Source of the DNA: Kiritimatiellia bacterium
Lineage (GTDB): Bacteria; Verrucomicrobiota; Kiritimatiellia; RFP12; UBA1067
Assembly: GCA_045598585.1 (NCBI GenBank)
Contig: JAZLMG010000027.1
Location: 4,380 to 68,379, forward strand
Length of the DNA stretch: 64,000 nt
Reading direction: 5' to 3'
Part shown: one piece after another, positions 33,769-52,635 of the stretch
How the letters are laid out: each line of letters starts with the position of its first letter
How positions within the stretch are numbered: the first letter of the stretch is position 1
Notes under the pieces: generated by a model
The model's database searches: none
Told to the model about the DNA's origin: nothing
What the model saw: only the letters and a program-made list of their open reading frames with translations
Position numbers and translations under genes: made by a program

Positions 33769-36336
33769 ATGAAAAACTTGATATTATTAGGTGCTGTTGT
33801 AGTAGGTGCGGTTACTTCGTTTGCGGCGCCCAAGGCCGATGAGAGTACGAAGGCTGCGTATGATGTTATCCGTCGTTTTGCGGGCGAAGTCGATCCGAAG
33901 GTCGAGCTGAAGCTCGATGGGGTTAGGGGAATGGGGAACGGGGACTGGTTTAACACCGAGGTGAAGGGCGAGAAGCTCGTCGTTACCGGTAATAGTCCCA
34001 TCGCTCTTACCCGCGGCTTTTATACGGCTACGAAAGCTCAAAAGCGCGGCATGAACAGCTGGGCGGGAAACCGTTTCGCCGCCGAGCCCTGGAAGAAAGA
34101 AGCGGAAGTTACCGGCTCGACTCCGTTCGAATACCGTTACTACTTTAACGTCGTAACTTACGGCTATACGATGCCCTATTGGACTTGGGAGCGCTGGAGT
34201 AAGGAAATCGACTACATGGCGCTTCACGGCATCAATTCGCCGATCACGCTCGTCGCGCAGGAAGCGATTATGGCGCGTGTTTTCAAGAAACTCGGCCTTA
34301 CCGACGATGAGATTCAGAGCTATTTTGTCGGCCCCGCCCATCTTCCTTGGATGCGCATGGGCAATATCTCCGGTCTCGACTCTCCCATGCCGCTCGAGTG
34401 GCACACGGACCAGATCGCGCTCCAGAAGAAGATTCTCAAGAAAATGCGCGCTCTTAAGATGAAGCCGATTACGCCCGGCTTCGCGGGATTCGTTCCGCCT
34501 GCCCTGAAGCGCATCTATCCCGACTTGGAGCTCGTCGAAACGAAGTGGTGTGGCGGCAGATTTCATAACTGGATGGTCATGCCCAATCACCCCGTCTTCG
34601 AGAAGATCGGCACGATGTTCATCGAGGAATATCAGAAGGAATTCGGCAAGAATGATCTGATACTCGTCGACTCCTTTAATGAGATGGAGACTCCTTTCCC
34701 TCCGAAGGGCTCGGCGGAGCGCTACAATCTCATGAACGAGTATGGCGAGAAGGTCTACCGCTCGCTTCACAACGCGAACCCCGACGCGATTTGGGTAATG
34801 CAGGGTTGGATGTTCGGCTACCAGCGTCATGTCTGGGATCAAGACACTCTCGCGGCACTCGTGAAGAAAGTCCCGGACGACAAGATGATCCTCCTCGATG
34901 AAGCCGTCGACTATAATAAGCATTGGTGGCACAATCAGGTCAATTGGGATTTCCACAAGGGCTTTTACAATAAGCTCTGGATCTACTCCGTGATTCCGAA
35001 TATGGGCGGAAAGTGCGGCCTTACGGGCGTCCTCGATTTCTATGCGAATGGTCACTTGGAAGCCCTTAATTCGCCGAACAAGGGTCGTCTCGTGGGCCAC
35101 GGCATGGCTCCCGAGGGCATCGAAAACAATCAGGTCGTCTACGAAATCATGGCCGATGCCGCGTGGCGCACGGAAAGAGCCGATATTCGTCAGCTTCTCC
35201 GCGATTATTCGACCGCGCGTTACGGAAAGTACGATCCCGCCCTCGATACATTCTGGGATGGAATGCTCAAATCTTGCTACGGTAGCTTCTGCGACCACCC
35301 GCAGTTCACTTGGCAGCTCGCCCCCGGGCGTGACGGCAAGGGCTCGATCAAGACGAATGCCGATTATTATCGCGGCATCGAGGCCCTCGCTTCGGTCGCG
35401 TATAAATTCAAGAATTCGCCGCTTTTTGAGGCCGATATGATTGAGATGGCCGTCGCTTATTGCGCGGGTCGAGTCGAAGAGTTGATTATCGAGAGCGAGC
35501 GGGCGATGCGCGAAGGCGAGGACGAGGTAAGCGACACTTGCGAACTCTGGATCGAGCGCCTTCTTATGGCGATGGACCGCCTCCTCGAGTCTCATCCTCA
35601 CTTCTCGCTCGAGCGTTGGATTAAATTCGCCCGCGCGCATGGCGGAAAGAACGAAAAGCTCGCCGATTACTACGAAAAGAATGCGCGCCGCATCGTCACG
35701 ATCTGGGGCCCGCCCGTCGATGACTATGCGTGCAAGGTCTGGTCGGGACTTATTCGTGACTACTATGTCCAGCGTCGTAAGATTTATATCGCCAACAAGC
35801 GCGGCGCTTCTAACGTCAACCGTTCCGAGTGGGAGCGCGAGTGGGTCGAGAAGAAGACGGGTGTAAGCGCCGTTAAGCCCTATCGAGACCCCATTGTCGC
35901 TTCGATTGCAATGGTCCAGGATTCGGCCAAGATTGTGAAGTCGCTCGTCGGAGACGTCAACGCCGCGAAAGTCTCGAACGTTAAGGCGGTCGGCGGCTGG
36001 GATCCGAAGTCGGTTTCGCTCAATACTTGGAAGGATATCGTGATTCCTTGCTCGACTCAGGACATCCGTTCGGGTCGCGCGATTCGCCTTCGCTATATTC
36101 GCGGCAGTGAACGCCTCGAGATTAAGCGTATCGCCATCGAAATGGACGGCAAGATTGTCGCCAAGTCGGAGAAGTTCGGCTTCACCGGCACGAAGCAGGA
36201 AAATAACGTCCTTCTTTACGATATCGGTTCCGAAGTTACCGGCAACAACAGCTGCAACATCGTCCTTACCGTTCGCACGCAGAACTCGAAGGACTCGACC
36301 GGTGCGGTTGAGATCTTGCTGAAAAAGAAGAAATAG
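33769..36336 (+). CDS. alpha-N-acetylglucosaminidase (GH89, NAGLU-like) with a C-terminal beta-sandwich extension
   Basis: Signal peptide MKNLILLGAVVVGAVTSFAAP. NAGLU-like blocks (YYFNVVTYGYTMPYWTWERW, GPAHLPWMRMGN, VDSFNEM, PNMGGK) are followed by about 130 extra C-terminal aa. Confidence 0.85.
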   Translation: MKNLILLGAVVVGAVTSFAAPKADESTKAAYDVIRRFAGEVDPKVELKLDGVRGMGNGDWFNTEVKGEKLVVTGNSPIALTRGFYTATKAQKRGMNSWAGNRFAAEPWKKEAEVTGSTPFEYRYYFNVVTYGYTMPYWTWERWSKEIDYMALHGINSPITLVAQEAIMARVFKKLGLTDDEIQSYFVGPAHLPWMRMGNISGLDSPMPLEWHTDQIALQKKILKKMRALKMKPITPGFAGFVPPALKRIYPDLELVETKWCGGRFHNWMVMPNHPVFEKIGTMFIEEYQKEFGKNDLILVDSFNEMETPFPPKGSAERYNLMNEYGEKVYRSLHNANPDAIWVMQGWMFGYQRHVWDQDTLAALVKKVPDDKMILLDEAVDYNKHWWHNQVNWDFHKGFYNKLWIYSVIPNMGGKCGLTGVLDFYANGHLEALNSPNKGRLVGHGMAPEGIENNQVVYEIMADAAWRTERADIRQLLRDYSTARYGKYDPALDTFWDGMLKSCYGSFCDHPQFTWQLAPGRDGKGSIKTNADYYRGIEALASVAYKFKNSPLFEADMIEMAVAYCAGRVEELIIESERAMREGEDEVSDTCELWIERLLMAMDRLLESHPHFSLERWIKFARAHGGKNEKLADYYEKNARRIVTIWGPPVDDYACKVWSGLIRDYYVQRRKIYIANKRGASNVNRSEWEREWVEKKTGVSAVKPYRDPIVASIAMVQDSAKIVKSLVGDVNAAKVSNVKAVGGWDPKSVSLNTWKDIVIPCSTQDIRSGRAIRLRYIRGSERLEIKRIAIEMDGKIVAKSEKFGFTGTKQENNVLLYDIGSEVTGNNSCNIVLTVRTQNSKDSTGAVEILLKKKK

Positions 36337-36599
36337 GTGAAGAAGTGAGGTAGCCATTTTCGGCTTCCTTATCGACACGAATAGCCTCCAGCGTGTACGG
36401 AATATCCACGAATAGGAGTGGAATTGTCTTGTAGTTCATTCGTGTGTATTCGAGAGGCTTGGTCAGCATTCGTGTGGATTAAAGAGGACTGCGCAAGCAG
36501 TTCAAGTCCGCTTTAATTTATTCGTGCTCCGGCGCGGTAGCGCCTACTCCGAAGGCCTTAACTAAAACACCGCCACTATTGACAGGGGAGGTGGAAAAG

Positions 36600-36655
36600 T
36601 CTATCAGTGAAAACGTCAAAAGTCTATCAGTGAAAACAGGAAATATCTATCAGTG
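36600..36655 (+). promoter_or_regulatory. 3 direct repeats of TCTATCAGTG at 23-bp spacing abutting the -35 of the DUF4143 ATPase promoter
   Basis: Copies at 36600-36609, 36623-36632 and 36646-36655. The first two are embedded in identical 20-mers (AAAAGTCTATCAGTGAAAAC). Confidence 0.7.
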
Positions 36656-36684
36656 TTGATTATATCTGAGAAATATGATATAAT
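36656..36684 (+). promoter_or_regulatory. extended -10 promoter of the AAA_14/DUF4143 gene
   Basis: TTGATT, 17-nt spacer, TGATATAAT. Confidence 0.55.
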
Positions 36685-36706
36685 ATTTGCATATTTTGGA
36701 GGGTAT

Positions 36707-37975
36707 ATGAAACGTAGAGGTTATCGCGACAGATTGATTGATAAAAATGTGGAGCTTTATCTTTCCACATTCGGTGCAGTGTGCTTGGAGGGCCCGAAGT
36801 GGTGTGGAAAGACATGGACAAGTCTTGCTCATGTCAAAAGTGCATATATGATAGCAGATCCATCTGACAACTTTGCGAACCGTCAATTAGCTAAGTTAGA
36901 TGTTAACAAGGCCTTAGAAGGTGAAACTCCACATCTAATTGATGAATGGCAAGAGATTCCTGCGGTTTGGGATGCAGTAAGATTTCGTGTTGATGAGGAA
37001 GCAAAGACCGGGCAATTTATCTTAACAGGATCGTCAACTCCGCAGAACAAAGGCGTCATCCATTCAGGGACGGGTCGAATTGCGCGGCTTCCAATGCATC
37101 CAATGTCGTTATACGAGAGTGGTGATTCAACAGGATCAGTATCATTGGCTGCAGTTTGCCGCGGTGAATCGATTGGTGTCGAGGCAATGGAATGTCCCAG
37201 TGTTGAACGATTGACCTCGCTTGTTGTAAGAGGAGGGTGGCCAGCTGCGCTTGGGAAATCCGATGAACAGGCAATGTTGATTCCTCGAGAATATATCGAA
37301 AACGTAATAAATATCGATATTCATAAATTGGATAATATAGAGCGGGATTCGGTAAAGGTTCGTAAATGCCTTAGATCGCTGGCACGTAATGAGTCGACTT
37401 CCGCAACAACAGCAACTATTCGGAATGATATTGCTGAAGTCGATGATTCTACGCTTAGCATCAATACTGTCGTCAATTATCTCGATGCCTTCAAGAGACT
37501 GTTCTTGACGCATGATACGGAGCCTTTTTCCACTTTCCTTCGCTCCCCTACGCGGATTAAGCAGCAAGCGAAGCGCCGCTTCTGCGATCCTTCAATAGCT
37601 GCCGCGTTACTCGGAGCGACGCCGGCGATGCTAATGCGAGACTTAAGGACATTTGGATTGTTGTTTGAATCTTTGGCTGTAAGAGATCTTGAAATCTATG
37701 GTGAATCTCTCGGCGCGAAAATTTATCATTATCAAGATTATGATAGCGATGAGTTTGATGCTGTTTTGCAGTTCCCGGATGCTTCCTGGTGTGCGTTTGA
37801 AGTGAAGTACAATCCTGAAGATATTGAGGAAGCTGCTAAGAACCTTATCGAAACCTCTAAAAAGTTTGTGCACAATCCTCCACGAGCGCTTTGTGTTATT
37901 GTCGGCAAACATGGCATCGCTCACCGTAGGGATGATGGAGTTTATGTACTTCCTTTAATGATGCTTCGTCCATAA
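36707..37975 (+). CDS. AAA_14-type ATPase with DUF4143 C-terminal domain
   Basis: ATG 36707 follows GGAGGG. Walker A GPKWCGKT, Walker B LIDEWQ, and C-terminal DUF4143-like FESLAVRDL…YHYQD…DAVL. Confidence 0.8.
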   Translation: MKRRGYRDRLIDKNVELYLSTFGAVCLEGPKWCGKTWTSLAHVKSAYMIADPSDNFANRQLAKLDVNKALEGETPHLIDEWQEIPAVWDAVRFRVDEEAKTGQFILTGSSTPQNKGVIHSGTGRIARLPMHPMSLYESGDSTGSVSLAAVCRGESIGVEAMECPSVERLTSLVVRGGWPAALGKSDEQAMLIPREYIENVINIDIHKLDNIERDSVKVRKCLRSLARNESTSATTATIRNDIAEVDDSTLSINTVVNYLDAFKRLFLTHDTEPFSTFLRSPTRIKQQAKRRFCDPSIAAALLGATPAMLMRDLRTFGLLFESLAVRDLEIYGESLGAKIYHYQDYDSDEFDAVLQFPDASWCAFEVKYNPEDIEEAAKNLIETSKKFVHNPPRALCVIVGKHGIAHRRDDGVYVLPLMMLRP

Positions 37976-38181
37976 TAACAACATCTCAAGAAGTCGCTCG
38001 CGAGGGGATGGAAGTGCTCGCAAGGCGAGGCGCTTCGCCGGATGAGAACACAAAAATTTCGCCGCGCGGCAGGGTGATGATATGATTCCTAACCAAGCGG
38101 CGAGCCATATTTTATAAGGGTCATAGCGCGTTTTTGCCGCGCTATAAACGCGCCGCGAGCTATAAGTTGCTAAAAATAGCG

Positions 38182-38210
38182 CTTTACGGGACAAAAAAAA
38201 ACGATATAAT
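38182..38210 (+). promoter_or_regulatory. putative promoter of the giant gene
   Basis: CTTTAC, 17-nt A-rich spacer, TATAAT (38205-38210). The -35 is weak. Confidence 0.4.
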
Positions 38211-38232
38211 GTAAAATGTAAAAGCACGGGAA

Positions 38233-38312
38233 CTGTGCTGAAGGCGGCAGCTTGGTCAGGGGTTTCTAACATCATTCCTCCCCGAAGCTGGGCTGCTCGC
38301 CTTCAGCACAGC
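38233..38312 (+). promoter_or_regulatory. long imperfect stem-loop in the ~130-nt 5' UTR of the giant gene
   Basis: CTGTGCTGAAGGCG (38233-) pairs with CGCCTTCAGCACAG (-38312), GCAGC with GCTGC, and GGGG with CCCC. TTTCTAACA occurs in the apical loop and again at 38328-38336 just before the SD. Confidence 0.5.
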
Positions 38313-38348
38313 TGCCGTATCGTACGATTTCTAACAAAGGAAAATAAG

Positions 38349-41300
38349 ATGATGAAAAAGATCATGAAAACTATGTTGTCTTTTGCCGCGCTGATGCTGT
38401 GCGGCGGAGCGTGGGCGGCGGCAATCTATAAGCCGATTGCGGTTTGGGATGGTAACTTTGCGGATTTGACAAAGGGCGGCGTTACGCTTGCCAATGTCGG
38501 TGAATCTGCTAATCCTATTGTCACAAGCAATGGAGAGTCGTATATTAAAATTGCCGATGATGCAACAAAAGGTGTGTTCCTTAACTGGGATGATCTTTAT
38601 AATGTAACGTTGGCCAACGGCGGTTTTAGCGGAAGAGAGGTGACGGTCATCGTAGCATATTCGGATATGCCGACTCCGGGGACAAATGCGAAAGACGCAA
38701 TTTTCACTTTGACGAGTCAGGCAACGACAACGAGCAATGCAAGCTCTGACTGGCTTGGTGTTATGGCGAACACGTCCGGTCAGACGTCGGCTATGGTCGG
38801 ATCTAATTCGACTTGGACGCACACTTCTGAGAATCCGAAAGGCGTGTTTGACTTTGCGAATAACGAGCAAGGTATTCGTTATCTCGCGTTCTCGTATAAA
38901 TCTTCAAGTACCGAGGTGCTTCCGACGGGTTGCCAGCTTTTCCAGAGAGCCGATGACGGTACTTGGACGAAGGTTTATGGATCGTGGGGACTTAAGACGT
39001 CCACTGCGGATATTAGAGGCTGCAGTATCGGTGGCCCTCGTAATGTGACTTATGCGGGCGCACTTCAAGGACTTAAGATTCATAAGATAGCGGTCTTTAA
39101 TGAAATTCTTACGGATGCAAATCTCGCAGGATATCGTTTCCCGAGTGATGTTAACGTCCTGACGCACAACAAGGCATTGACTAGCGACTATGTTGCAACC
39201 GGTTGGTATGTTTCGTCTGTCGATGAACTTACCGCCTACAACTATACGGGCGTAATGGCCGGTGGTTATGTCACGGATGGAACTCCCGCATACGGATATT
39301 TCCCGACGAAGCACAGTGATGGCACGGTTACGGTCGAAATGCATGGCGTTGACAACGAAGCAAAGGGCGTGCTCGTCGAAATGAAGGTCGAGGACGGTGA
39401 GGTCAAAATTAAAGGTATCAAGGCGGCGTATTGGAGTGCTAAGAATCAAATCGGCAATCGTTTGTGGCAGGCGGCGAATAATTCGCAGATTACAACCGGG
39501 AATGGAACATTTGCGTCGGGTGCAACAGGCAATGGTTATGGCATTTTGTCTTTGACGGCGACTCCGAGCTATCATGTTTTAAACGCTTCATATAAGAATT
39601 TCAATCAGGCGGGCTATGGAAGTACGTATACATACAAATTTAATTTGCGCGCTACCCCGAGCTATGCTGATGGAACAAAGGTTCTCGTAAAGCGTGTTGG
39701 TATTGCATGCGAAGGTGCGAACGACGATCTTCCCGCAAAGGTTCGCATTAACGGAATCGCGAGCACTTCGCGTATTGGGCCTGAATATGAATCGACCTTT
39801 GGCTCTGCGTCAAGTACTATTGTCTATTATAATTTTGATAATGGAGTTGAGCTGACTGTTGGCACGGATGCAGATGAATTTGTATATTTGAATGCTGATG
39901 ATACTGTATCGACTTCTATTCGACATCGTCTCGTTGAAAAGATCGCTCGCAGTTATTCCAATCTCTCGGTTATTACCATTTACAATAATGGTACTGAAGT
40001 TACGAACTATTCGCCGATTTGTGATGTTGTTGCCGAGCGAATAGCGATTAATCCGGATAATGATGCGACGTTTACGGGTACACTTTCGCATTCTACATGG
40101 TCGGTGATTGGTAAGGTTGCAGAAGGTGACACGATTAATGATGTCGCGCTCAAATACGGAATTACTGCGCAGCTTGGCGGTTCGAGCATTAACAGAGGAA
40201 CGCCTCTTGATGCCGTTGACTGCTACTCGCAGGTTCACACAGATGGTGTTCTCACCGTCGAAATGCATGTTCAGGATGGTGATAACAAGAAGAATGTGCT
40301 TGTTGGCTTCAAGGTCGAAGGTGGTCTCTTAATGGCCAAGTGGCTTAAGGGCTCTTATAAGGGAACAACAGTAAATGATCGCCAAACAACCTACGCAGAA
40401 GGTGGGACGATCTCAGTTATTTCGGGTTTTACCTCGTATGATAACTACGAGGTTACAAAGCTCGTGGTGACGAAGGCCGATCTCCTCAACACGAGCGCGA
40501 CGAAGCCTTCTGTAATCGCCACGAGCAATAACGCGCTCCGTCTTCATCTCGATGCCTCATCGCTCGCCAACTTCACGCTCTCAAATGGTGAGGTGACGCA
40601 GTGGAACGACCTCTCCGGCAAGAACTATAATGCAACGCCGGCATCGGCAAAGGTCGGTAATGCGGATGTGACCCGAAATGGTTATATCGAAGTTGTTAAT
40701 GGCGTCCCCGCGTTCCAGATGGGACCGACCGGGAGCGGCGTCGATCTCGCCTTCAATCGATTCACCGGCATCAAGACTGTGTTTTGGGTGATGGACATCA
40801 AACAGGAACAAGCTGCGTTCTTCCTCGGAGATGTCGGTTATCAGCAATATGACTTCCATCGTGGCGCTAATGGTGTTTATGCCTCTCAGAACAAGCCGTT
40901 CAAGAATGCGACATGCGTGCGCTGCGATGGTGTACAGGTAAATCCCGCCTCTGATGTCGCGCCGACCGGTTTGCATGTCTATTCCGCACAGTTGGCCACG
41001 GCTGCTAATGCGAATCGTCTTTCACAGGACCGCTCCGAGAACGGATGCAATGGCGGTCGTGCGATTTCAGAACTTTTGATTTTCAATACCGAACTCACGA
41101 ATGATCAGGTTGCGGAAGTCAATAAGTATTTGATGAAGAAGTGGACCGGATATAAAGAACGCACGGCCACGATCTCTGCTGATACGAATTGGTCGGAAAT
41201 TGAGTGGTCCGGTGATGAAGATACGGATAACATTGTTATTGCCTTTGAAGATAATGCCAAGCTGACGTTTGATTCGTCGGTGCAGTGCAACTCGATGACG

Positions 41301-44300
41301 ATTTCCGGCAATGGTCAGATTGCCGCCGATGAGTCGCTCTTTACGGATGGCTGCTATATCAAGGCGCTTGTCGAGGCGCAGAGCGCTCTCACGATTGCGG
41401 ATACCATTACGTTCGATCAGACAATGAAGTCTGGTTTTGTTGGAGCGCTTTACAAGACAGCAACAACGATTGAGCTTCGTGCGCAGAATAAGGAAGTTAT
41501 CTCCATTAACCTTGCCGGCGGTAAGAACACGGCGGAGACTTCCGAAGCCGCGAACTTGGTGACGGACGCCAATACCTATTATGGTCTCGCGCCGGTTCCG
41601 GGTGATAAGTGGAATAATATTTCCGGTCGTTGGCAGACGGGAAACAAGACCGTTACGCTTAATTCGGCTACCGCGTATGATGGCATGACGACGGCTCAGC
41701 GCGATACGATGAGCTTGAGTGCGACGGCGCAAAATACTTGGAATGCTGATAGTATTGCAAATCCGTTCCTTCGCGGCTATCTTGACGATAGCGGCGGCGT
41801 TGAAGTCTCGGTTACGGGTATCCCTTATTCGAAATACGATGTCATTGTTTATGTAACATCGGATGATGCACGTTATAGACTTGCGCCGATTACCGTGAAC
41901 AAAGTCAAGTATACCTATATGAACGGGGAAGCCGTCGTTGATACCGGTACGACGGATTGGGGCGTTGGACTTCAGGCGACGCCGGCTTTCGGCAAGAATG
42001 CGATGATTATTCGCAACCAGAGCCTGCAGACCTTGTCAATCAAGGCCGAGCGTCATACGAATGCGGGTCGTGGTACGCTTTGCGCGATACAGGTTATCAA
42101 CATGGGCGGCGAGGTGCTGACCCAGCGCACCTATGCTTCGACGATTACGACAGAAATGACCGCAGCGAATCTCTCGGAGCTTCAGTGCACCGGCTCGGGT
42201 TCGACGATTGTTGGCGGTGAGCTCACTCAGGTTACGCTGACGCTTGAAGGCGAAGCGACTGATCCCGAATTCGTTTTGACGATGGACGATCCGACGATCA
42301 AGACGGAATTCATCAAGATTATCGGCTCGCGTCCGATTAAGATTGCCTCTTCCGCGGCGATGGAAGGTGTTGTTTTGGATCTTTCCGAAACGTCGGGCAA
42401 TGTGACGCTTGCTCAGTCGGCTAAGAAGGTGACGGTTGGCGAACACGCGCGCCTTGTTCTTGCCGATGGTGTCTCGGTTGAGGCGCTCACGAATAACGGT
42501 GGTACGATTCGCTTCGAATCTGACCTTTCGTCCGGTACGACGCCGAACAATGGCGCGGGTACTTACGAATATAAGAATGCGAAGATTACCGGCTTCGTCA
42601 ATGGCAGCGCGAAAATCCATGTACTTGATGGTGATACGCTTAACGTGACGGCGCGTACGGCTCCTTCGCTCGAAATTGAGAATGGCGCGACGGTGACGAT
42701 CGGTGAAGCCGTTGGCAGCTTGTGGTATGGCGATGGTACGACCTTTGTTCAGAAGGGTGGCACGGTCTCATTGCCAATTAACGGTACGGGAACCTCCGGC
42801 ACAGGTAATGGCCTCTTGCTCGGCTATCAGAATGGCGGCATCACTCAGATGTCGGTTTCGGGCGGCTCGTTCACGATTGCGAATTCGTCTCTCAACTTCT
42901 ATCTCTGCTCGTCGATGACGGTTTCGGGTACCGGACACGTCAAAGCGAAGGGTGTTTATAAGAGCGGTAATGCCGCGACAGTCACGGTTTCCGATAACGG
43001 TATCTTCGAAATCGGTTCGCTCGGTTGGTCTGATATTTCTCTTAATATGAACGGCGGCACGTTTAAGGCGTTCGAGACGGCGACGATGTCAGCGGCGATG
43101 ACGATCCGTGATGCGACGACGATAGATGTCCCCGATGGCGTCACGCTTACGATTACGGGCGCGATTTCGGGTAGCTCGAACATCACGAAGACGGGTGCGG
43201 GCACGCTCATCATCACCGACTCGCTAGAAGGTTATACGGGTACGATTACGGCAACGGCCGGCCGCATCTCGGCGTGTGACTACTCGAAGGTCGCGACTTC
43301 CGATGTGGGTAAAATTCTCGTCGTGGAGTCGATTCCCGAATATGCCTCGGGCCACTTCACGGTTCCGACGGAGCTTGCGACGGTTGACTTCGATGTTCTT
43401 CGTCCGACAGGTACGATTGTGACCAAGGCGGAAGTTCTCGCCGATAAGACGGCGAAGATCTCGGGCGTTGCAACGAGCTTCGACGTGACCTATACCAATA
43501 CGATTAACTTTGCGTACAAGGCGAATTCTTCATGGTCCTCGGCTACGGATGCCAATGCAAAATCGTACAATAACACGCTCAATGACAAGTCCACGGGTCT
43601 TGAAATTCATAATCAGCCGCATATTGAGAATATTGCGTCAACGTTTTATGATGCAACCGATCAATTGTCGTTTGCGATTGTCGGTACTATGCCGGCGGGT
43701 CAGGATACGATTTTTGCGCACTTTGGACATTCTCAATCCGGTAAGTCCGGCCTTATGATCATTACCGGATCTAAGGAAGATGAGGTCGTCGTAGCGTTCA
43801 ACCATGGAAATCAAGTTACGCCGATTGCGAAGATGGTAGTTCCGAATTCGGCGACCAAACGTCATGCGTATGTCATCACCAAGGATGACAATCGCGATGC
43901 CGATACGACGACCTTTACGATTTATCTCGATGGAATAAAGTGGAAGACCCATGTTGAAACACCGAGATTTATGATTAGCGGCAATATTCAAATCGGTGGT
44001 GATGTTTGGGGCCTAATTCGAAATACCCCAAGTATCACAAATCCTGCGAATAACTATACGATTGCTACTTCTCAAAATGATGGTATCGTAAACTGTGTTC
44101 GTGGATATAACCGAATTATCTCCGCAGCGGAAATTGCTCAGTATTCCGATGAGAGCGAATTTCCTTATGTTTCGCCGAATGGAACATATACTCGTAATCC
44201 TACCGAGAATGGTAGCTGGGTTAGCGAGGGTGCGTGGACGAGCGGAGATGAGACGGTTGAGAAGCCCTCGGTTAAGGGTAATGTCGTCGTGACCGGTACG

Positions 44301-47300
44301 CACGCTGAAAACGCCGAAGCGACCGAGAAGACGATTACGGTTAATCTCACCGATGAAGTTCAGTACGAAAAGCTCACGCTCTCGGGTGATCCGATGCGCT
44401 TCGTCAACGGCGGCAACGATGCAAAGCCCGTTAAGTCGGTCTGCACGGTTGTCGGCACGACGGTTACGCTTTCGCAGAATGCGATCGACCTCAAGGCCGG
44501 CCCGACGATCATTCTCGATACGGGCAAGCTCGTCTTCGACTTCTCTTCGCTTACCGAGCAGATCGTCGCTGCCAACCCGATCGATCAGCAGGTTACAGGC
44601 GATATCGAAGAAGATGAGAACATCGGCACTGAAAGCGCGAAGATTGTCGTCGTTGGCCCGGAGAATCCCGGCCGTCTCGACATTCGTTTGAGCTACGTCA
44701 ACAACTGCTATCATGTCGTTGCGGCATTGAAGCCGGTCTATCTCAACAGCGATAATACGTTGCAGCTTGCTGACGGAACGACGGTCTCTTCGCTCTACGA
44801 GAACGAGAAGGTTTATGTCTCCTCGGTTGGCTTTGATCAAACGACCCGCTGGCGCGTCAACCTGAATAATAACACGCTCAGCGGACATACGGTCGTCATC
44901 GACTATCCGAATGGTGGTTCGAATCCGGGTATCAGCGTCCAAAGCGATATCTTGGATAATCTCAACATTGAGATTGCGGACGGTTCGATTATGTACATGC
45001 AGTCGGGCTATAAGGCGACCAATGCGACGATTACCGGCAAGGGCACCTTTAAGCTCACACAGCCGTTGACGGTTGACGGCGCCTTGATGATCTCCGCGGC
45101 AACTGTTACCGTCGAAGAATCGGGTAAGTTCAAGTTGAATACCAACGGCTCGGTTACCGTTCCTTCTGAACTTGGCGAGGGTCTTATTGAAAGCAATGTT
45201 TCGGGCATGCAGGTCAAGAAGGTGACCAACGAAGGCGAGACGACGACCTACACTTACTCGCTCTTCACGCCGGCGGCTTCTATCACGATTGACGGTGAGA
45301 CGACGTATTATTATCCGACTCTTGCCGATGCGATTTCCGATGCCTCGGCGGATGGTCTTACGGTGACGCTTGAGGGTGATGTGACGCTGGACGCCGCAGT
45401 AACGGTTCCGGTTGGGGTTACCCTCGATATCGGTTCGCATACGATCAGCGGTAGTCAGGTTAATGTCTATGGCGCTATCGCCGGTAATGGTACGATCGGC
45501 ACTTTGGTGATGGTTCGTAATTCGACGATCATTATGCCCGAGGAGGGCGTGCTCAAGGTGAGCTACATCGGTAAGTTCGATATAAAGCTCAATATCGCCA
45601 ATGCTGCGACCTCGCCGCTTACCTATCTCGAAGTTGCGAACATCTATGTTGATGGCACGAAGGCGTATGCGCCGTCATTCATCTCCTTCGTCGATGATGG
45701 AGTCGAATCCGTTGGCGTGGTCGGTCTTGACCAGCGCGAATCGGATGAGGTCTATCTCCTCCAGGCGGCAATCGCCGTCGCCGGCGTTTCGGTTTCGGTA
45801 GGGGGAGTTGACTATACCTATGGTTACATGACTGTCAATGAGGCAGTAGAGGCGGCAGTTGAGCAGGGTGGCTCCTATGCCAATGTCGAGGTCTACGACG
45901 AGGACGCGGAACTTCCTGAGGGCTTCATGGTCGTCTCGGGTCATTTGGCTCCGATTGTCGCCAAGATCGGCACGACTCCGTATCCAACGCTCCCCGGCGC
46001 GATTGCTGCGGCAGAAGAGACCGCTTCGGCGCAGACGCCTGTGACGGTGACGCTCGCGCGCAACGTGACGCTTCAGGATGCTTTGAATATTCCCGCCAAT
46101 GTGACGGTTGATGTGAACGGCTTCACGTTCACGGGCTCGGTTCAGGGTGCGGGTAAGATCAAGTTCGCCGGCTTCGCGCCGATTAAGGATGCGACGACGC
46201 TCAAGACCTCGCTTCAGGATTCCGAACATTGGACGGGTACGCTTTTGATTACTCAGCCGACTTCGGGCCAGATTGGTGCGAGTGATAACACTGTCGATAC
46301 GGCGGCCAATGGCTATCGTACGCTTCTTAATAACTACGGCAACATCAATTCGAAGATTGAGTTCGTTGATTGCACGGGTGATGGTGATATCAACTATATC
46401 GGACTTTCGCACAATGGCGATTCTGATCCTGTTGTTATCAAGCCCGAAATTGTCATTACCGGTAATGTGAAACTAAATAACGGATATTCGCATAGCAACA
46501 GCTATCCGAATTACTACACCGTTATTCGTAAGCTTTCCGGTACGGGTGCAATCAGTGCAACGCACTCCTCGCAGCTCTATTACATCGTTGACGGCAGCGA
46601 GTTCGCGGGCTCCATCTCGACGACAACGAAGAAGTTCATCTTCGGTGAGCGTGAGTCGACGGATGGTGTTCCGGCAGATGGCATTATCGCCGTTAAAATC
46701 GGTAAGTCCGTAACGATCGCGTCTGATAAGACTTGGTCTGCGACATCGATCGTTGTTAACGGTACGCTTACGAAGTCGAATGGTGCGACTTTGACCGGTA
46801 GCAATAATAACAATGGTAAGGTTGCCGGCTCCGGCGAAATCATCGTCGTCGGTTCGACCACGGCCGCCGGTATCAGCGGACATGGTATTCGCGGGCTTAC
46901 CGAAACGAATTGGACGGGTACGCTTACCATTAAGGATTGGAATGGTGCTGCTAATGCCGGTTCGGCAGATTTCGGCAATCTCGGCAATGCCAATTCGACT
47001 GTTCGCTTCGATGGCTATAACGGTTATCTCTATACGGGAACCTATAACCAGATTAAGGCGTATGACATTGCCGCGGGCGGCTTGACCTTGATTGGTCAGT
47101 ACTCGAACGGTAATCCGATCTTCCAGGGCAACTTGACCGGATCGGGTCCGATTACGGTGAATATGACGGGTGGACGTTTGATTAAGTTCGTCGGCGATCA
47201 CTCCGCATATACGGGAACGATTACTGTTGCGAATACTGCGTGCGTTGCGTTGGTTGATTCGGCTGACGCGCCTGTCCAGTACGAAGCCGGCAAGGTCATC

Positions 47301-47840
47301 TACGGTTCCGGATCCTCTCAGAAGATTCCTGAGATTCCTGAAGATGCGACTGTGACGATTGCACCCGGATCAAACGCGACGGTGACGTTCCCCGAAGAAG
47401 CGACTGCCGAGGAGAAGGCGGCAATTGCTGACCAGATCGTCGTCAAGTACGGCGAGACTGTTCTCAATCCTGCCGAATGCACGAAGTATGTCGAAGTCAC
47501 GATCAATCAGGAATCCGGTAAGGTCGAGCTGACGACGACGGAGGCCGCCAAGCCGGCTGCGACGGAGATCGCGATGTCGACGCCGACGGAAGGCGAAGGT
47601 GAGGAAGCGACTGACAAGGTTCAGTTCACGATCACCAACCCGATCCCGGGTCTCTTCTACGAAATCGTCTCCGGCGATAGCTTCGATGAGCACGGTGCTC
47701 TCGTTGTTGACGAAGACGCTGAGAAGGGTACCTCTCAAGCGACGACTTCGGCCGAAGCGAAGACGGTCTCGATCCCGATGACCTTCACCGGCGATAAGAA
47801 GGTGAAGTACTACAAGGTCAGCGTCAAGGCAACGAAGTAA
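38349..47840 (+). CDS. giant secreted surface protein (3,163 aa): LamG/ConA-like lectin domains + PATR-like/beta-helix repeats + small conserved C-terminal tail
   Basis: ATG 38349 follows AAGGAAAATAAG, with signal peptide MMKKIMKTMLSFAALMLCGGAWA|AA. LamG-like segments lie at about 38420-39140, 40525-41150 (LHLDASSL…WNDLSGKN…LIFN) and 43594-44150. PATR-like motifs are TKTGAGTLIITDSLEGYTGTITATAGRI (~43180-43270) and LTGSGPITVNMTGGRLIKFVGDHSAYTGTITVAN (~47130-47235). An internal duplication covers ~39315-39435 and ~40240-40360 (DGTVTVEMHGVD / DGVLTVEMHVQD). I recognise no beta-barrel, LPXTG or PEP-CTERM. Confidence 0.85.
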   Translation: MMKKIMKTMLSFAALMLCGGAWAAAIYKPIAVWDGNFADLTKGGVTLANVGESANPIVTSNGESYIKIADDATKGVFLNWDDLYNVTLANGGFSGREVTVIVAYSDMPTPGTNAKDAIFTLTSQATTTSNASSDWLGVMANTSGQTSAMVGSNSTWTHTSENPKGVFDFANNEQGIRYLAFSYKSSSTEVLPTGCQLFQRADDGTWTKVYGSWGLKTSTADIRGCSIGGPRNVTYAGALQGLKIHKIAVFNEILTDANLAGYRFPSDVNVLTHNKALTSDYVATGWYVSSVDELTAYNYTGVMAGGYVTDGTPAYGYFPTKHSDGTVTVEMHGVDNEAKGVLVEMKVEDGEVKIKGIKAAYWSAKNQIGNRLWQAANNSQITTGNGTFASGATGNGYGILSLTATPSYHVLNASYKNFNQAGYGSTYTYKFNLRATPSYADGTKVLVKRVGIACEGANDDLPAKVRINGIASTSRIGPEYESTFGSASSTIVYYNFDNGVELTVGTDADEFVYLNADDTVSTSIRHRLVEKIARSYSNLSVITIYNNGTEVTNYSPICDVVAERIAINPDNDATFTGTLSHSTWSVIGKVAEGDTINDVALKYGITAQLGGSSINRGTPLDAVDCYSQVHTDGVLTVEMHVQDGDNKKNVLVGFKVEGGLLMAKWLKGSYKGTTVNDRQTTYAEGGTISVISGFTSYDNYEVTKLVVTKADLLNTSATKPSVIATSNNALRLHLDASSLANFTLSNGEVTQWNDLSGKNYNATPASAKVGNADVTRNGYIEVVNGVPAFQMGPTGSGVDLAFNRFTGIKTVFWVMDIKQEQAAFFLGDVGYQQYDFHRGANGVYASQNKPFKNATCVRCDGVQVNPASDVAPTGLHVYSAQLATAANANRLSQDRSENGCNGGRAISELLIFNTELTNDQVAEVNKYLMKKWTGYKERTATISADTNWSEIEWSGDEDTDNIVIAFEDNAKLTFDSSVQCNSMTISGNGQIAADESLFTDGCYIKALVEAQSALTIADTITFDQTMKSGFVGALYKTATTIELRAQNKEVISINLAGGKNTAETSEAANLVTDANTYYGLAPVPGDKWNNISGRWQTGNKTVTLNSATAYDGMTTAQRDTMSLSATAQNTWNADSIANPFLRGYLDDSGGVEVSVTGIPYSKYDVIVYVTSDDARYRLAPITVNKVKYTYMNGEAVVDTGTTDWGVGLQATPAFGKNAMIIRNQSLQTLSIKAERHTNAGRGTLCAIQVINMGGEVLTQRTYASTITTEMTAANLSELQCTGSGSTIVGGELTQVTLTLEGEATDPEFVLTMDDPTIKTEFIKIIGSRPIKIASSAAMEGVVLDLSETSGNVTLAQSAKKVTVGEHARLVLADGVSVEALTNNGGTIRFESDLSSGTTPNNGAGTYEYKNAKITGFVNGSAKIHVLDGDTLNVTARTAPSLEIENGATVTIGEAVGSLWYGDGTTFVQKGGTVSLPINGTGTSGTGNGLLLGYQNGGITQMSVSGGSFTIANSSLNFYLCSSMTVSGTGHVKAKGVYKSGNAATVTVSDNGIFEIGSLGWSDISLNMNGGTFKAFETATMSAAMTIRDATTIDVPDGVTLTITGAISGSSNITKTGAGTLIITDSLEGYTGTITATAGRISACDYSKVATSDVGKILVVESIPEYASGHFTVPTELATVDFDVLRPTGTIVTKAEVLADKTAKISGVATSFDVTYTNTINFAYKANSSWSSATDANAKSYNNTLNDKSTGLEIHNQPHIENIASTFYDATDQLSFAIVGTMPAGQDTIFAHFGHSQSGKSGLMIITGSKEDEVVVAFNHGNQVTPIAKMVVPNSATKRHAYVITKDDNRDADTTTFTIYLDGIKWKTHVETPRFMISGNIQIGGDVWGLIRNTPSITNPANNYTIATSQNDGIVNCVRGYNRIISAAEIAQYSDESEFPYVSPNGTYTRNPTENGSWVSEGAWTSGDETVEKPSVKGNVVVTGTHAENAEATEKTITVNLTDEVQYEKLTLSGDPMRFVNGGNDAKPVKSVCTVVGTTVTLSQNAIDLKAGPTIILDTGKLVFDFSSLTEQIVAANPIDQQVTGDIEEDENIGTESAKIVVVGPENPGRLDIRLSYVNNCYHVVAALKPVYLNSDNTLQLADGTTVSSLYENEKVYVSSVGFDQTTRWRVNLNNNTLSGHTVVIDYPNGGSNPGISVQSDILDNLNIEIADGSIMYMQSGYKATNATITGKGTFKLTQPLTVDGALMISAATVTVEESGKFKLNTNGSVTVPSELGEGLIESNVSGMQVKKVTNEGETTTYTYSLFTPAASITIDGETTYYYPTLADAISDASADGLTVTLEGDVTLDAAVTVPVGVTLDIGSHTISGSQVNVYGAIAGNGTIGTLVMVRNSTIIMPEEGVLKVSYIGKFDIKLNIANAATSPLTYLEVANIYVDGTKAYAPSFISFVDDGVESVGVVGLDQRESDEVYLLQAAIAVAGVSVSVGGVDYTYGYMTVNEAVEAAVEQGGSYANVEVYDEDAELPEGFMVVSGHLAPIVAKIGTTPYPTLPGAIAAAEETASAQTPVTVTLARNVTLQDALNIPANVTVDVNGFTFTGSVQGAGKIKFAGFAPIKDATTLKTSLQDSEHWTGTLLITQPTSGQIGASDNTVDTAANGYRTLLNNYGNINSKIEFVDCTGDGDINYIGLSHNGDSDPVVIKPEIVITGNVKLNNGYSHSNSYPNYYTVIRKLSGTGAISATHSSQLYYIVDGSEFAGSISTTTKKFIFGERESTDGVPADGIIAVKIGKSVTIASDKTWSATSIVVNGTLTKSNGATLTGSNNNNGKVAGSGEIIVVGSTTAAGISGHGIRGLTETNWTGTLTIKDWNGAANAGSADFGNLGNANSTVRFDGYNGYLYTGTYNQIKAYDIAAGGLTLIGQYSNGNPIFQGNLTGSGPITVNMTGGRLIKFVGDHSAYTGTITVANTACVALVDSADAPVQYEAGKVIYGSGSSQKIPEIPEDATVTIAPGSNATVTFPEEATAEEKAAIADQIVVKYGETVLNPAECTKYVEVTINQESGKVELTTTEAAKPAATEIAMSTPTEGEGEEATDKVQFTITNPIPGLFYEIVSGDSFDEHGALVVDEDAEKGTSQATTSAEAKTVSIPMTFTGDKKVKYYKVSVKATK

Positions 47841-47883
47841 GCGAACTATTCTATCAGATATATTAGTTCGATTTACCAACAGC

Positions 47884-47915
47884 AAACGGCTTCGAAAGGA
47901 GCCGTTTGTTATTTT
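47884..47915 (+). terminator. rho-independent terminator of the giant gene
   Basis: AAACGGCT-tcgaaagg-AGCCGTTT followed by GTTATTTT. Confidence 0.8.
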
Positions 47916-47922
47916 AAGGGGC

Positions 47923-47952
47923 TTGATTTGAGAGAGAGGATTTTGATATAAT
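47923..47952 (+). promoter_or_regulatory. cassette promoter 1 (GGGGCTTGAT…TGATATAAT)
   Basis: TTGATT, 18-nt spacer, TGATATAAT. ATG 47961 is 8 nt after the -10. Confidence 0.6.
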
Positions 47953-47960
47953 AGCGTAGC

Positions 47961-48893
47961 ATGAATCCTTTAAGAAATAGCAATATTAACTACTGCCAAG
48001 GGTGGTTCTTCGTTACTATCCAAGTGGCGATGAACAAATCGGTTTTTGGTGTTGTTTCCGATAAGAGATTAATTCTTAATGAGTTAGGAAATGCGGTTAA
48101 AGAGAATCTAAGCCGACTTGGAAATATATTCCCGGAATTATATGTTGATACCTTTGTAATTATGCCGAACCATCTTCACGCTATTTTCAAGATAGATAGT
48201 AAAAGCGAGTCGCGGCATCTGTCGTATTTTATAGGACGATTCAAGTCTTTCACAGCGAATTTGTATCATAGAATGGTAAGAGAAGGTGTTTGTATTGATA
48301 TTGGGGCTTCGCTTTGGCAGACTAATTATTACGATAATTTGATAACCGAACATAAGGAGCTGGAAGCCATCAGAGAATATATAAGGAGAAATCCCGAGAG
48401 ATGGGAGGATGACCGTTTTGGCCCGGTTACGACATATTCAAAGGGAAACCTGAAGCTGTTAAATGAGTCTTTGGTGGCATTTGTCGCGTCAGATACTAAA
48501 GATAATTGGCAAGAGGATGTGCCGCATTTAAGAGAGGTGAGAGAGGTTTCAGGACGGAGCCCTATTTCAAAAGAAGCTCCCTTAATATCCACTTTCTCTA
48601 GTTTTGAGGAAAAAGGAGCTTTGTTAAAAAGAATAAATGATAGGTTGCCTTTTATATGGGTAGATCCGGCAGGAATTAAGCCGAATCTTCGTCCTGATAT
48701 TGAATCGGCGATTCTTGAAGGATGGGGATTGGTGATTTCTCCGGTTGAAAGCGGGACGGGACTCAATAAACAACGGGCGATCTGGTGTAATAGATGGATT
48801 ATTAAGGTAGCTAAACGAATTTATGTTGGAACGATAAAGAAGGGTGGTACTCTTGATACATTGTTGACGCACGGAGGCGTCAACCTACGATAA
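47961..48893 (+). CDS. HUH Y1 transposase (IS200-like/REP-associated RAYT, COG1943-type) fused to a DprA-like (SLOG-fold) C-terminal domain
   Basis: 310 aa. The N-terminal ~160 aa carry the HUH motif (MPNHLHAIF), LWQTNYYDNLI and the catalytic-Tyr motif (EYIRRNPERW). The C-terminal ~150 aa resemble DprA at motif level: GNLKLLNESLVAFVAS (compare GNxxLL…vaIVGSR) and GLVISPVESGTGLNKQRAIWCNRWIIKVAKRIYVGTIKKGGTLDT (compare liSE.p.g…F..RNRiI.gls…vvEa..kSGsl.T). Confidence 0.6.
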   Translation: MNPLRNSNINYCQGWFFVTIQVAMNKSVFGVVSDKRLILNELGNAVKENLSRLGNIFPELYVDTFVIMPNHLHAIFKIDSKSESRHLSYFIGRFKSFTANLYHRMVREGVCIDIGASLWQTNYYDNLITEHKELEAIREYIRRNPERWEDDRFGPVTTYSKGNLKLLNESLVAFVASDTKDNWQEDVPHLREVREVSGRSPISKEAPLISTFSSFEEKGALLKRINDRLPFIWVDPAGIKPNLRPDIESAILEGWGLVISPVESGTGLNKQRAIWCNRWIIKVAKRIYVGTIKKGGTLDTLLTHGGVNLR

Positions 48894-48940
48894 CATATCG
48901 TGGTGCTCGGCCTCTGTGCCGAATTATGTAATCTTCCGCG

Positions 48941-48995
48941 CGAGGGTGTGAATAGAGGCGAGGAGTGATCTTCGCCTCTTTCTTCGTCTTTCCCG
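48941..48995 (+). repeat. 55-nt hairpin element, copy A (full length)
   Basis: CGAGGGTGTGAATAGAGGCGAGGAGTGATCTTCGCCTCTTTCTTCGTCTTTCCCG, inserted after TCCGCG. The flanks match the empty site at 52227-52263. Confidence 0.85.
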
Positions 48996-49015
48996 GCACT
49001 TTGGCGGAATGGGGC

Positions 49016-49045
49016 TTGATTTTCCCAAGGGGAATATGATATAAT
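49016..49045 (+). promoter_or_regulatory. cassette promoter 2
   Basis: GGGGCTTGATT, 18-nt spacer, TGATATAAT. Confidence 0.6.
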
Positions 49046-49147
49046 ATAAGCGATCTCCCGAAAGGTGGGATCATCTGGATGCGGAGGAAAGTCTTCGCGT
49101 TGGTGACGGGAAGTAATTCTCGTCGCCTTCTCATTTTAGCGGCAGGC

Positions 49148-49837
49148 ATGGCAGAGAAAATATTGAGTATATTTGTGGATGAATCGGGGCGCTTTCAGTA
49201 TCCCGATTCCGATTCTCGTTTCTACATTTTGGGTCTTGTATTACACGATCAATCTGACGCAATAGATAAATACGTTGCAGATCTTGAGCGGTCTGAAGAT
49301 GAGGTTGGACTTGAAGGGCATTGTTTTCATGCCGGACCTCTTATCCGCAAGGAGAAGGGGTATGAAATCATGAGTCGTAAATGGCGTGGAAGGATATTCT
49401 CTCGCATGATGGCATTTGCTCAGAAGGTTCCTTTTCGCTATCATTGTCTGAGCGTTGATAAGAAACTTATTGATGATGTTGGCCAGATTGTTGAACGCTT
49501 AGATCGACAACTGGTTGAGTTCATTTCATTGCATCGAATCGACTTGTTCAATATCGAGACTATCAAGATATACTACGATTGTGGTCAGTCTCCGGTTACA
49601 AATCTTCTTCATAAGACATTCGTTGAAGAACTCGGGAAACGGGTGGAGTTTGCGCAAGGAGTACAACCGTCAAGCTATCGGCTTTTCCAGTTGGCAGATC
49701 TCGTATGTACAGTTCATCTAATCGAGCGGCGTCTGGAAGAAGGGGATAGGATGACGATGTCAGAGGTTCGGTTCTTTGGCGGTCCTCGCGACTTCAAACG
49801 AAATGTTTTGAAAAAGCTCAAGGCCAAGGAAGTTTAA
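49148..49837 (+). CDS. DUF3800-family protein
   Basis: N-terminal ILSIFVDESG and C-terminal YRLFQLADLVC are DUF3800 hallmarks. An alternative upstream ATG at 49079 is conserved in the truncated copy. Confidence 0.7.
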   Translation: MAEKILSIFVDESGRFQYPDSDSRFYILGLVLHDQSDAIDKYVADLERSEDEVGLEGHCFHAGPLIRKEKGYEIMSRKWRGRIFSRMMAFAQKVPFRYHCLSVDKKLIDDVGQIVERLDRQLVEFISLHRIDLFNIETIKIYYDCGQSPVTNLLHKTFVEELGKRVEFAQGVQPSSYRLFQLADLVCTVHLIERRLEEGDRMTMSEVRFFGGPRDFKRNVLKKLKAKEV

Positions 49838-49889
49838 TCGAAGTAATCCTGTAAATCCTGTAAATCCTGTCTAAAACAGGACAAGCTAA

Positions 49890-49931
49890 AGAGGCGAGGC
49901 GTGAGTCTCGCCTCTTTCTTCGTCTCCCGCG
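49890..49931 (+). repeat. hairpin element, copy B (hairpin + 3' part; different 5' flank)
   Basis: AGAGGCGAG-gcgtgagt-CTCGCCTCT TTCTTCGTCTCCCGCG, preceded by the TCCTGT-ctaaa-ACAGGA hairpin (49865-49881) and AAATCCTGT tandem 9-mers. Confidence 0.8.
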
Positions 49932-49951
49932 GCGCATTGGCGGGAGGGGGC

Positions 49952-49981
49952 TTGACGAGGTTATCATAATTATGATATAAT
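49952..49981 (+). promoter_or_regulatory. cassette promoter 3
   Basis: GGGGCTTGACG, 18-nt spacer, TGATATAAT. The SD AAGGAGA precedes ATG 50006. Confidence 0.6.
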
Positions 49982-50005
49982 TCTTATCGGTTTAAGGAGA
50001 AGATT

Positions 50006-50302
50006 ATGCCGCCTATGATTAAAGACTCGGATATTCGTCCGATTTCCGACTTGCGCAATAAGTTCGCCGAAATTGCGGATTATGTGCAAGATGGTAATGC
50101 CGTTATCTTTACGCGTAATGGCTATGGTTGCATGGTGACGATCAGTTACGATTCGTTCAAGCGTCTAGGAGATCCTGTGCTTGCTGAATTGCGAGAGGCG
50201 GATCGAAAGTGCGAGCAGGACCCTCGTCATTATACGAAAGAAGAGTCTTTAGCCATTTTGAAGGAGCGCGCTAATGCTCGGCGAAACCGCGTACAGGCTT
50301 GA
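50006..50302 (+). CDS. Phd/YefM-family type II antitoxin
   Basis: 98 aa. IRPISDLRNKFAEIADYV…VIFTRNGYGCMVTISYDSFKRL is typical of Phd/YefM. Confidence 0.8.
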   Translation: MPPMIKDSDIRPISDLRNKFAEIADYVQDGNAVIFTRNGYGCMVTISYDSFKRLGDPVLAELREADRKCEQDPRHYTKEESLAILKERANARRNRVQA

Positions 50303-50621: not shown

Positions 50622-50667
50622 CGCGAAGGTTAAGTACTTCCGCGTCCGCGTCAAGGCGACCAAGTAA
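50605..50667 (+). pseudogene. relic of a giant-protein 3' end (…PEVSGNAKVKYFRVRVKATK*)
   Basis: Aligns with the giant C-terminus TFTGDKKVKYYKVSVKATK* at both protein and DNA level (GTCAAGGCGACCAAGTAA vs GTCAAGGCAACGAAGTAA). It is out of frame with the parE end. Confidence 0.65.
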
Positions 50668-50709
50668 TCTTGGAAATCCTGTCAATCCTGTCTAAAACAG
50701 GCAAGTTAA

Positions 50710-50752: not shown

Positions 50753-50772
50753 GCGCATTGGCGGGAGGGGGC

Positions 50773-50802: not shown

Positions 50803-50859
50803 ATAGGCGATCTTTCGAATGAAGGATCATCTGGATGCGGGGAAAGTGCTCCGCCTTAA

Positions 50860-51069: not shown

Positions 51070-51080
51070 GGGCTTTGTTT

Positions 51081-51167
51081 TCAGCTAAGGCGGACTCGAT
51101 CCCGAAGACCTTCGGCGAAGGTAAGAAGGTCAAGTTCTTCAAGGTCAGCGTCAAGGCGACCCGATGA
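51081..51167 (+). pseudogene. relic of a giant-protein 3' end (SAKADSIPKTFGEGKKVKFFKVSVKATR*)
   Basis: Aligns with SAEAKTVSIPMTFTGDKKVKYYKVSVKATK* (47748-47840), with strong DNA identity (TCGATCCCGAaGACCTTC…AAGAAGGT…AAGGTCAGCGTCAAGGC). Confidence 0.75.
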
Positions 51168-52634: not shown

Positions 52635-52635
52635 T

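Follow-up and report, generated by a model that had tools for sequence, protein, structure and literature searches.

The C-terminal domains (CTDs) of the Bacteroidota type IX secretion system (T9SS) have been described as immunoglobulin (Ig)-like 3+4 sandwiches (PMC11285876). Together with the giant "passenger-only" proteins of the PATR/autotransporter-like type in Planctomycetota–Verrucomicrobiota–Chlamydiota (PVC) bacteria and the C-terminal domains of clostridial collagenases, they are the described systems closest to the locus considered here. This locus lies in a window of 64,000 nucleotides (the whole stretch of DNA analysed) from contig JAZLMG010000027.1 of the Kiritimatiellia assembly GCA_045598585.1, in which one gene encodes a protein of 3,163 amino acids (aa), hereafter the giant, a strain-specific addition to the giant surface proteins of PVC bacteria, a group with poor annotation. 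The assembly, with a completeness of 93%, amounts to 2.0 Mb over 87 contigs, and the host, an uncultured member of Kiritimatiellia, comes from herbivore guts: the MnmA encoded in the window is 96% identical to that of a Kiritimatiellia metagenome-assembled genome (MAG) from horse faeces and 60-73% identical to those of many ruminant Kiritimatiellae MAGs. Kiritimatiellia are common degraders of polysaccharides and mucins in animal guts.

An earlier reading of this locus, made without database searches (the original prediction), took the giant for a secreted surface-type protein with no recognisable anchor and a small terminal beta-sandwich. Our analysis bears out this core reading, finds no known sorting domain that the sandwich matches, and adds what had been missed, namely that the terminal module, which we call the end-domain or tail, is a lineage-restricted and obligately C-terminal domain family. 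We regard a sorting or anchoring tag as its most likely role, with a probability of roughly one half; the giant as a whole would then best be read as a strain-variable, non-enzymatic, adhesin-type surface fibre with a position-dependent terminal tag.

Results

A domain confined to the extreme C-terminus

The gene and its terminal module lie at the following positions of the window.

38349..47840, plus strand: coding sequence of the giant (P0001), stop codon included; a single uninterrupted frame from ATG 38349, 3,163 aa.
47484..47837, plus strand: C-terminal end-domain, aa 3046-3163; predicted fibronectin type III (FN3)/Ig-like beta-sandwich with the strands PGLFY and KVKYYKVSVKATK.

A profile built from seven tails retrieved 166 clusters at E ≤ 1e-3, 47 of them at E ≤ 1e-10, from 1.84 billion representative proteins. 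In every one of the 151 proteins matched by a 60-sequence profile, the tail ends at most 11 residues from the C-terminus (median 2); it is internal in 0/151, as against 6 of the 28 occurrences of the giant's N-terminal head module. Signal-peptide-like N-termini are present in 106 of the 119 collected proteins of at least 400 aa. These searches show the end-domain to be restricted to exported proteins, and there to the extreme C-terminus. Its last strand fits [FY][FY][KR][VI]x[VI], and the tail subfamily carries the signature PGLxY ... VKATK. The relatives P0003, P0004 and P0007 have endings nearly the same as that of the giant (...FTITNPIPGLFY...KVKYYKVSVKATK), while those of P0005, P0008 and P0009 are looser.

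Carriers of the tail span about 300 to 4,199 aa. The tail is present in 110 of 120 collected proteins of at least 400 aa, and any other module in no more than 26. Almost all carriers are Pfam-dark, and their few matches are of adhesin type (InlB B-repeats, LamG, BspA-type leucine-rich repeats, cohesin); P0007 carries an SGNH insert. Since single linkage through any shared module joins 99 of the 110 bodies, the cargo is a modular family and not an assortment of enzymes without relation to one another.

Of 41 relatives, 15 have the tail. Phylum-wide, 9 of 301 sampled genomes (mostly of high quality) encode it, eight of them in the same order as the host; by family within that order, the counts are 4/12, 1/1, 1/15 and 1/3 genomes. 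The family thus lies almost entirely in the host's order and is patchy there. At least five tail-bearing proteins are encoded in the host genome: the giant itself (contig C27), proteins of 3,214 aa on C15, 1,076 aa on C61 and 1,978 aa on C47, and a partial open reading frame (ORF) at the start of C47. An hhalign comparison of the tail profile with the ends of ten further giants encoded in the genome showed homology for that on C47 only; the remaining ends share at most their last ~11 residues (..FFR/K.h.h), which is not significant.

Fold of the end-domain

An AlphaFold model of the ~115-aa tail computed from 60 sequences is a beta-sandwich of eight strands, with a pLDDT of 80.4 and a pTM of 0.67. 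It replaces a model of 179 aa from seven sequences (pLDDT 68.6) for which the fold search was uninformative. Conserved in relatives, the C-terminal module of the original prediction proves to be real. Foldseek against the PDB gave no significant match to the model (best E 0.13, TM-score ≤ 0.45); generic Ig/FN3-like domains make up the 50 matches listed together with pilins and cytokine-receptor domains, and no T9SS CTD is among them. PDB profile matches of the tail family were weak, the best being chain A of 9n2z ("LM2363", 118 aa) at E 1.1e-4, in an alignment that spans 91 positions and includes G-YY and KYYKV. The PGKYY strand of the collagen-binding domains of clostridial collagenases was matched at E 6e-4 to 5e-3, over half of the module. 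None of the 60 family tails convincingly matched a Pfam or NCBIfam family, and a literature search found no description of the tail or of giant-protein sorting in Kiritimatiellia. By these comparisons, the end-domain is an uncatalogued family that matches no known sorting domain.

The same evidence bears on the idea that the tail is a divergent T9SS CTD and the giant a T9SS cargo, which we consider extremely improbable. The logic of the two is the same, a Sec signal combined with an obligately C-terminal beta-sandwich of ~80-115 aa. However, in addition to the lack of a T9SS CTD among the listed structural matches, the CTD models of type A (Por_Secre_tail, PF18962/TIGR04183) and type B (PF13585/TIGR04131) are neither matched by the giant (at E ≤ 1, and at E ≤ 10 for its last 363 aa) nor listed among the matches of the 60 family tails. 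The host belongs to Kiritimatiellia and not to Bacteroidota, and a search for SprA (PF14349) gave no match in its genome, which is 93% complete, nor in any of 14 control genomes.

Two endings on homologous bodies and the proposed role of the end-domain

Four of the 16 full-length relatives (P0010, P0011, P0012 and P0014) are without the sandwich, yet have body modules in common with the giant. They end in Gly, a short hydrophobic strand and Arg or Lys (...GGMTIVVR, ...GFMLMLK, ...GFYIRIR and ...QFMILVR). Homologous bodies therefore bear one of two mutually exclusive endings, which is the behaviour expected of address labels. The short tag is not used in the host genome, where a single, chance-like match occurs among 1,246 ORFs of at least 300 aa. 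As a sorting or anchoring tag, the end-domain would target giants to the cell surface or retain them on it, doing the job that the CTD does for the T9SS in Bacteroidota, and the short tag may do an equivalent job in other Kiritimatiellia. The tail would be proximal to the cell and the lectin-like head distal.

Several points weigh against such a role. No co-occurring machinery backs it; the neighbourhoods of the tail genes in the genome share cassette genes only, with no secretion partner, and the contexts of the relatives P0003, P0005, P0007 and P0009 hold no conserved secretion genes. Even inside the order its occurrence is uneven, with one family, for instance, having it in 1 of 15 genomes, and such patchiness would be unexpected of a core secretion pathway. 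The cargo is less diverse than that of the T9SS. At 53% identity to P0003, the tail also falls below the conserved core of the body, which reaches 68%, and the domain calls made for the body come through sub-threshold or transitive matches. Lastly, as 99 of the 110 bodies are connected, the tail could simply be a terminal piece that a single family of modular fibres has conserved.

In the main rival reading, the tail is a structural end-cap or distal binding tip of a single modular fibre family and plays no part in export or anchoring; release or retention of the protein would come about in some other way, for instance through type II secretion plus non-specific association. We judge an end-cap possible, though less probable than a tag. 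The linkage of the bodies, the generic FN3/Ig-like sandwich fold, the lack of partner genes adjoining the tail genes and the patchy distribution would all suit it, and the three secretins of the genome could export folded giants without a linear tag. Against an end-cap, the tail is never internal when other modules, the head included, shuffle freely, it is the only near-universal module, and homologous bodies swap it for a different C-terminal ending.

Signal peptide and known anchors

38349..38417, plus strand: predicted Sec signal peptide, aa 1-23, with the cut of signal peptidase I (SPase I) after AWA; read from the sequence.

The frame of 3,163 aa with a Sec signal peptide stands as originally described. 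A ribosome-binding stretch, AAAGGAAAATAAG, lies directly 5' of ATG 38349, and the database record P0002, from one 80.7-kb contig, is the same protein minus its first Met. In the N-terminus, MMKKIMKTMLSFAALMLCGGAWA↓AA, one recognises the n- and h-regions and the AxA-region of a Sec/SPase I signal, so the giant would be expected to cross the inner membrane via Sec and then to be cut by SPase I.

Our searches agree with the earlier statement that a known anchor is lacking. The whole giant is free of LPxTG, its last 60 aa contain no PEP motif, and it gives no match to TIGR02595 (PEP-CTERM). The best 19-residue hydropathy window of the last 120 aa reaches 0.7, and there is no hydrophobic segment. 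A beta-barrel translocator (PF03797) gave no Pfam match in the whole giant or its pieces, a TpsB partner not having been searched for. As to type I secretion of the RTX type (LapA/SiiE), there is no match to HemolysinCabind or to any other Pfam family, and the giant has an N-terminal Sec signal.

A different anchor is conceivable at the other end of the protein, which might be held N-terminally as a lipoprotein via Cys18 (LMLC-GG), and the tail would then need no anchoring role. Cys18 does lie at a lipobox-like distance within the signal peptide, and LCGGAWA is kept in the closest subfamily. However, L-M-L-C, with Leu at position -1, does not fit the canonical lipobox [LVI][ASTVI][GAS]C (read directly, no predictor run), position -1 being Leu or Val and not Gly, Ala or Ser. 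What the wider family conserves is G(G/S)AWA↓A, a site for SPase I, which recurs among relatives; Cys18 does not, and the Cys is shifted or missing in many members (for example P0005, P0006, P0009 and P0056). Because the putative lipobox is non-canonical and its Cys moves or is missing, whereas AWA↓A is kept, a lipoprotein anchor is very unlikely.

The genome encodes an exosortase (contig C5) and three secretins. About 2 kb downstream of the tail-bearing giant on C47 (18836-24772) lies a type III secretion-like cluster (C47:26364-40189), with a 612-aa secretin, a 675-aa FlhA/SctV-like membrane protein, a small chaperone-like protein with tetratricopeptide repeats and small paralogues; this assignment is based on the sequences plus one Pfam secretin match. 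No link of the exosortase, the secretins or the type III-like cluster to the tail genes could be shown.

Body modules

Searched as a whole, the giant gave no significant match in Pfam, NCBIfam or PDB sequences, and no relative of the whole protein was found among GTDB species representatives. Relatives of comparable length number only 16; all are unnamed, each is related over part of its length, and none places the giant in an already characterised adhesin family. The Pfam/NCBIfam scan of the whole protein (E ≤ 1) was followed by a scan of nine overlapping pieces (E ≤ 10), the last 363 aa included. This returned sub-threshold matches only, of which one is sensible: Laminin_G_3 (PF13385) near aa 1835-1930, at 14.8 bits against a cut-off of 27.6. 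As the giant's own match is sub-threshold, the three LamG domains that had been proposed were tested through homologous segments of relatives. The body comprises the following features.

38418..39164, plus strand: N-terminal head module, aa ~24-272; a profile of 13 heads matches aa 15-272 at 3.4e-70.
39312..40358, plus strand: region of the ~40-aa module, with copies at aa 322-362 and aa 630-670, read by eye.
40518..41162, plus strand: second ConA/LamG-like module, aa 724-938; match of profile A4 at 4.1e-98.
41163..42413, plus strand: conserved core, aa ~939-1355 (RAQNKEVISINLAGG...GYLDD...), the best-conserved part relative to relatives; no Pfam match.
42495..43328, plus strand: T/G/N/V-rich, beta-helix-like stretch, aa ~1383-1660, closing in a PATR-like motif, ITKTGAGTLIIT, as read from the sequence.
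43446..44240, plus strand: third ConA/LamG-like module, aa 1700-1964; Laminin_G_3 via homologues, and weak PDB profile matches to ConA-like folds.
45147..46796, plus strand: two beta-helix-type segments, aa 2267-2387 and aa 2538-2816, each beginning xYPTLxxAI...VTVTL.

Laminin_G_3 was matched by one of 13 homologous heads (best E 3.1e-9), the giant's own head being without a match, by one of six homologues of the second module (E 8.5e-3) and by three of 14 homologues of the third (best E 1.8e-3), where the giant itself gives E 0.03-0.05. PDB profile searches with the head and the second module yielded nothing useful. We conclude that the head is probably a ConA/LamG-like jelly roll. The LamG assignment is plausible but transitive, being sub-threshold in the giant and reached through homologous segments, and the three domains claimed stand as candidates.

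The other claims made for the body fared unevenly. The duplicated ~40-aa module is visible by eye, but self-BLAST at E 1e-3 found no internal repeats. PATR (PF12951) is undetected in the giant even at E ≤ 10, is recorded for the relatives P0006, P0009, P0011 and P0014, and leaves a resemblance at the level of the motif ITKTGAGTLIIT. The two YPTL..AI..VTVTL motifs are present, at about aa 2320 and aa 2545, and their segments are common to P0007, P0004, P0023 and others at 30-46% identity in a BLAST map of the relatives. On this map, aa 936-1637 are 68% identical to P0003 and 45% to P0006, the head is 25-33% identical to many relatives, and aa 529-644 have zero coverage and are unique to the giant. 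The same modules occur in relatives with differing order and combination, and module profiles also match further giants encoded in the host genome, tail-less ones included. Together, the map and the profiles show that related bacteria carry the modules in shuffled arrangements. The body is thus a mosaic, in which probable binding modules of ConA-like type are combined with a conserved but uncharacterised core and with stalk segments of beta-helix type.

Flanking elements, tail relics and cassettes

38222..38317, plus strand: leader hairpin of ~95 nt, predicted fold -61.4 kcal/mol, between a TATAAT-like box (38203-38208) and the start codon.
47875..47915, plus strand: terminator hairpin 3' of the giant's stop codon, reused after other giants and after cassettes.
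50623..50667, plus strand: tail relic A (AKVKYFRVRVKATK, then stop), closing a HUH-DprA / DUF3800 / phd-parE unit.
51075..51167, plus strand: tail relic B (...SIPKTFGEGKKVKFFKVSVKATR, then stop), closing a truncated DUF3800 unit.

Copies of the leader hairpin at 87-96% identity stand ahead of the giants on C15 and C48 and also occur on C67, and it is probably a reused promoter-leader module. Terminator copies at 92-100% identity are found at C15:10466, C27:55609, C42:42563 and C42:44430. Since the leader, the signal peptide with the head, the tail and the terminator are common to giants, they frame a shuffled interior.

Seven truncated copies of the last 13-28 codons of the tail are distributed over four contigs, two in the window and five elsewhere in the genome, all of them in frame with a stop codon. 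The two in the window are those in which the original prediction had seen the final strands conserved, and both are real. Relic A shares 95.6% identity with the 3' end of the gene for P0007, which comes from another metagenome, and relic B shares 82% with that of the P0003 gene; from these matches, both derive from other alleles rather than from the resident one. On C42, as in the window, one relic closes each small unit, comprising DUF3800, Phd-ParE and two Gp49-like killer/antidote pairs. The cassette regions are 47841-53072 of the window, C42:41300-46900 and C15:10460-11500, each cassette being closed by an in-frame relic and a terminator.

The seven relics suggest that the 3' coding end of the tail and its terminator would serve as a recombination site that accumulates toxin-antitoxin and DUF3800 cassettes. 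A single crossover between a circular cassette bearing a tail fragment and the resident tail would give a full gene with its terminator, then the cassette, then a truncated relic. The observed layout fits such single-crossover integration of circular cassettes at the tail end.

Genomic neighbourhood

The upstream gene is indeed a NAGLU/GH89 gene (E 1.6e-118), as the original prediction had it, but the "GH-D-like" gene downstream (53073-55013) encodes a 646-aa signal-peptide protein with no Pfam match at E ≤ 1e-3. Among 30 genomes of the genus, this protein has one homologue, at 67% identity and in an unrelated context. Each of the flanking glycosidase-type genes occurs in one of the 30 genomes and never adjoins a tail-bearing gene, and the one usable contig with a flanking-gene homologue (G005) has an unrelated upstream context. 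An AAA_14/DUF4143 ATPase gene (36653-37975) lies between the GH89 gene and the giant. The G+C fraction is 0.44-0.48 at 32000-34000, 36000-40000 and 48000-53000, against 0.53-0.55 in the flanks, and these low-GC stretches fit an accessory island that takes in the cassette array, STAND/AAA ATPases and the first part of the giant gene. Given the intervening ATPase gene, the rarity of the flanking genes and the low-GC stretch, the glycosidase neighbourhood gives no functional support, and the glycan-binding role that had been argued from it falls back on the probable ConA-like modules as its only ground.

An ATPase gene with AAA_14 and DUF4143 is found near a giant in three independent loci, namely the window and the contigs of P0003 and P0005 (window, 36653-37975; L094, 1575-2912; L092, 1-277 and 19589-20632). 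As the DNA of these loci is dissimilar, the proximity is either an association that recurs or a product of chance where accessory islands are dense in genes.

Discussion

A folded domain that is always last, uncatalogued and restricted to a single lineage offers a concrete handle on how Kiritimatiellia place very large proteins at their surface, and it can be used for reporter fusion, deletion and phylogenetic profiling to find the machinery. The locus also displays strain variation in a defined form: leader, head, tail and terminator are shared, the interior is shuffled, and mobile cassettes gather at the tail end. Were the tail only an end-cap, the giant would be an ordinary, though poorly annotated, giant adhesin.

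A more ambitious proposal joins these observations. In it, the PGLxY...FYKV end-domain would mark the cargo of an undescribed Kiritimatiellales pathway for outer-membrane export or anchoring and would be functionally interchangeable with the short tag of sister lineages, and the last 13-28 codons plus the terminator would be an attachment site at which small circular cassettes with toxin-antitoxin or defence genes integrate Campbell-style, each insertion restoring the giant's end and leaving a relic behind. Taken as a whole, this combination is doubtful, and we offer it as speculation.

Among known systems, the collagen-binding/PPC-type domains of clostridial collagenases (PDB 1nqd, 4hpk) resemble the end-domain as C-terminal beta-sandwiches of secreted proteins and through the weak profile match over the PGxYY strand; in contrast, this match spans only one half of the module, and Foldseek did not recover it. 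The PVC passenger-only proteins are like the giant in size, signal peptide, T/G/N-rich beta-helix stretches, a PATR-like motif (with PATR recorded in four relatives) and the lack of a translocator barrel; they differ in that PF12951 is undetected in the giant, most of whose length matches no family. The T9SS CTD (PF18962/TIGR04183) shares with the tail the combination of a Sec signal with a small Ig-like sandwich that is always last, the occurrence of several cargo proteins per genome and a final strand that is amphipathic and basic. It differs in having no sequence or significant structural similarity to the giant's tail and in belonging to another phylum, T9SS genes being undetected in the host by a SprA search without a positive control; moreover, the cargo of the tail consists almost only of adhesin-type modular giants and not of enzymes. 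Finally, the short Gly-hydrophobic(4-5)-Arg/Lys tag, although a peptide of 7-10 residues and not a folded domain, sits, like the end-domain, on bodies homologous to the giant.

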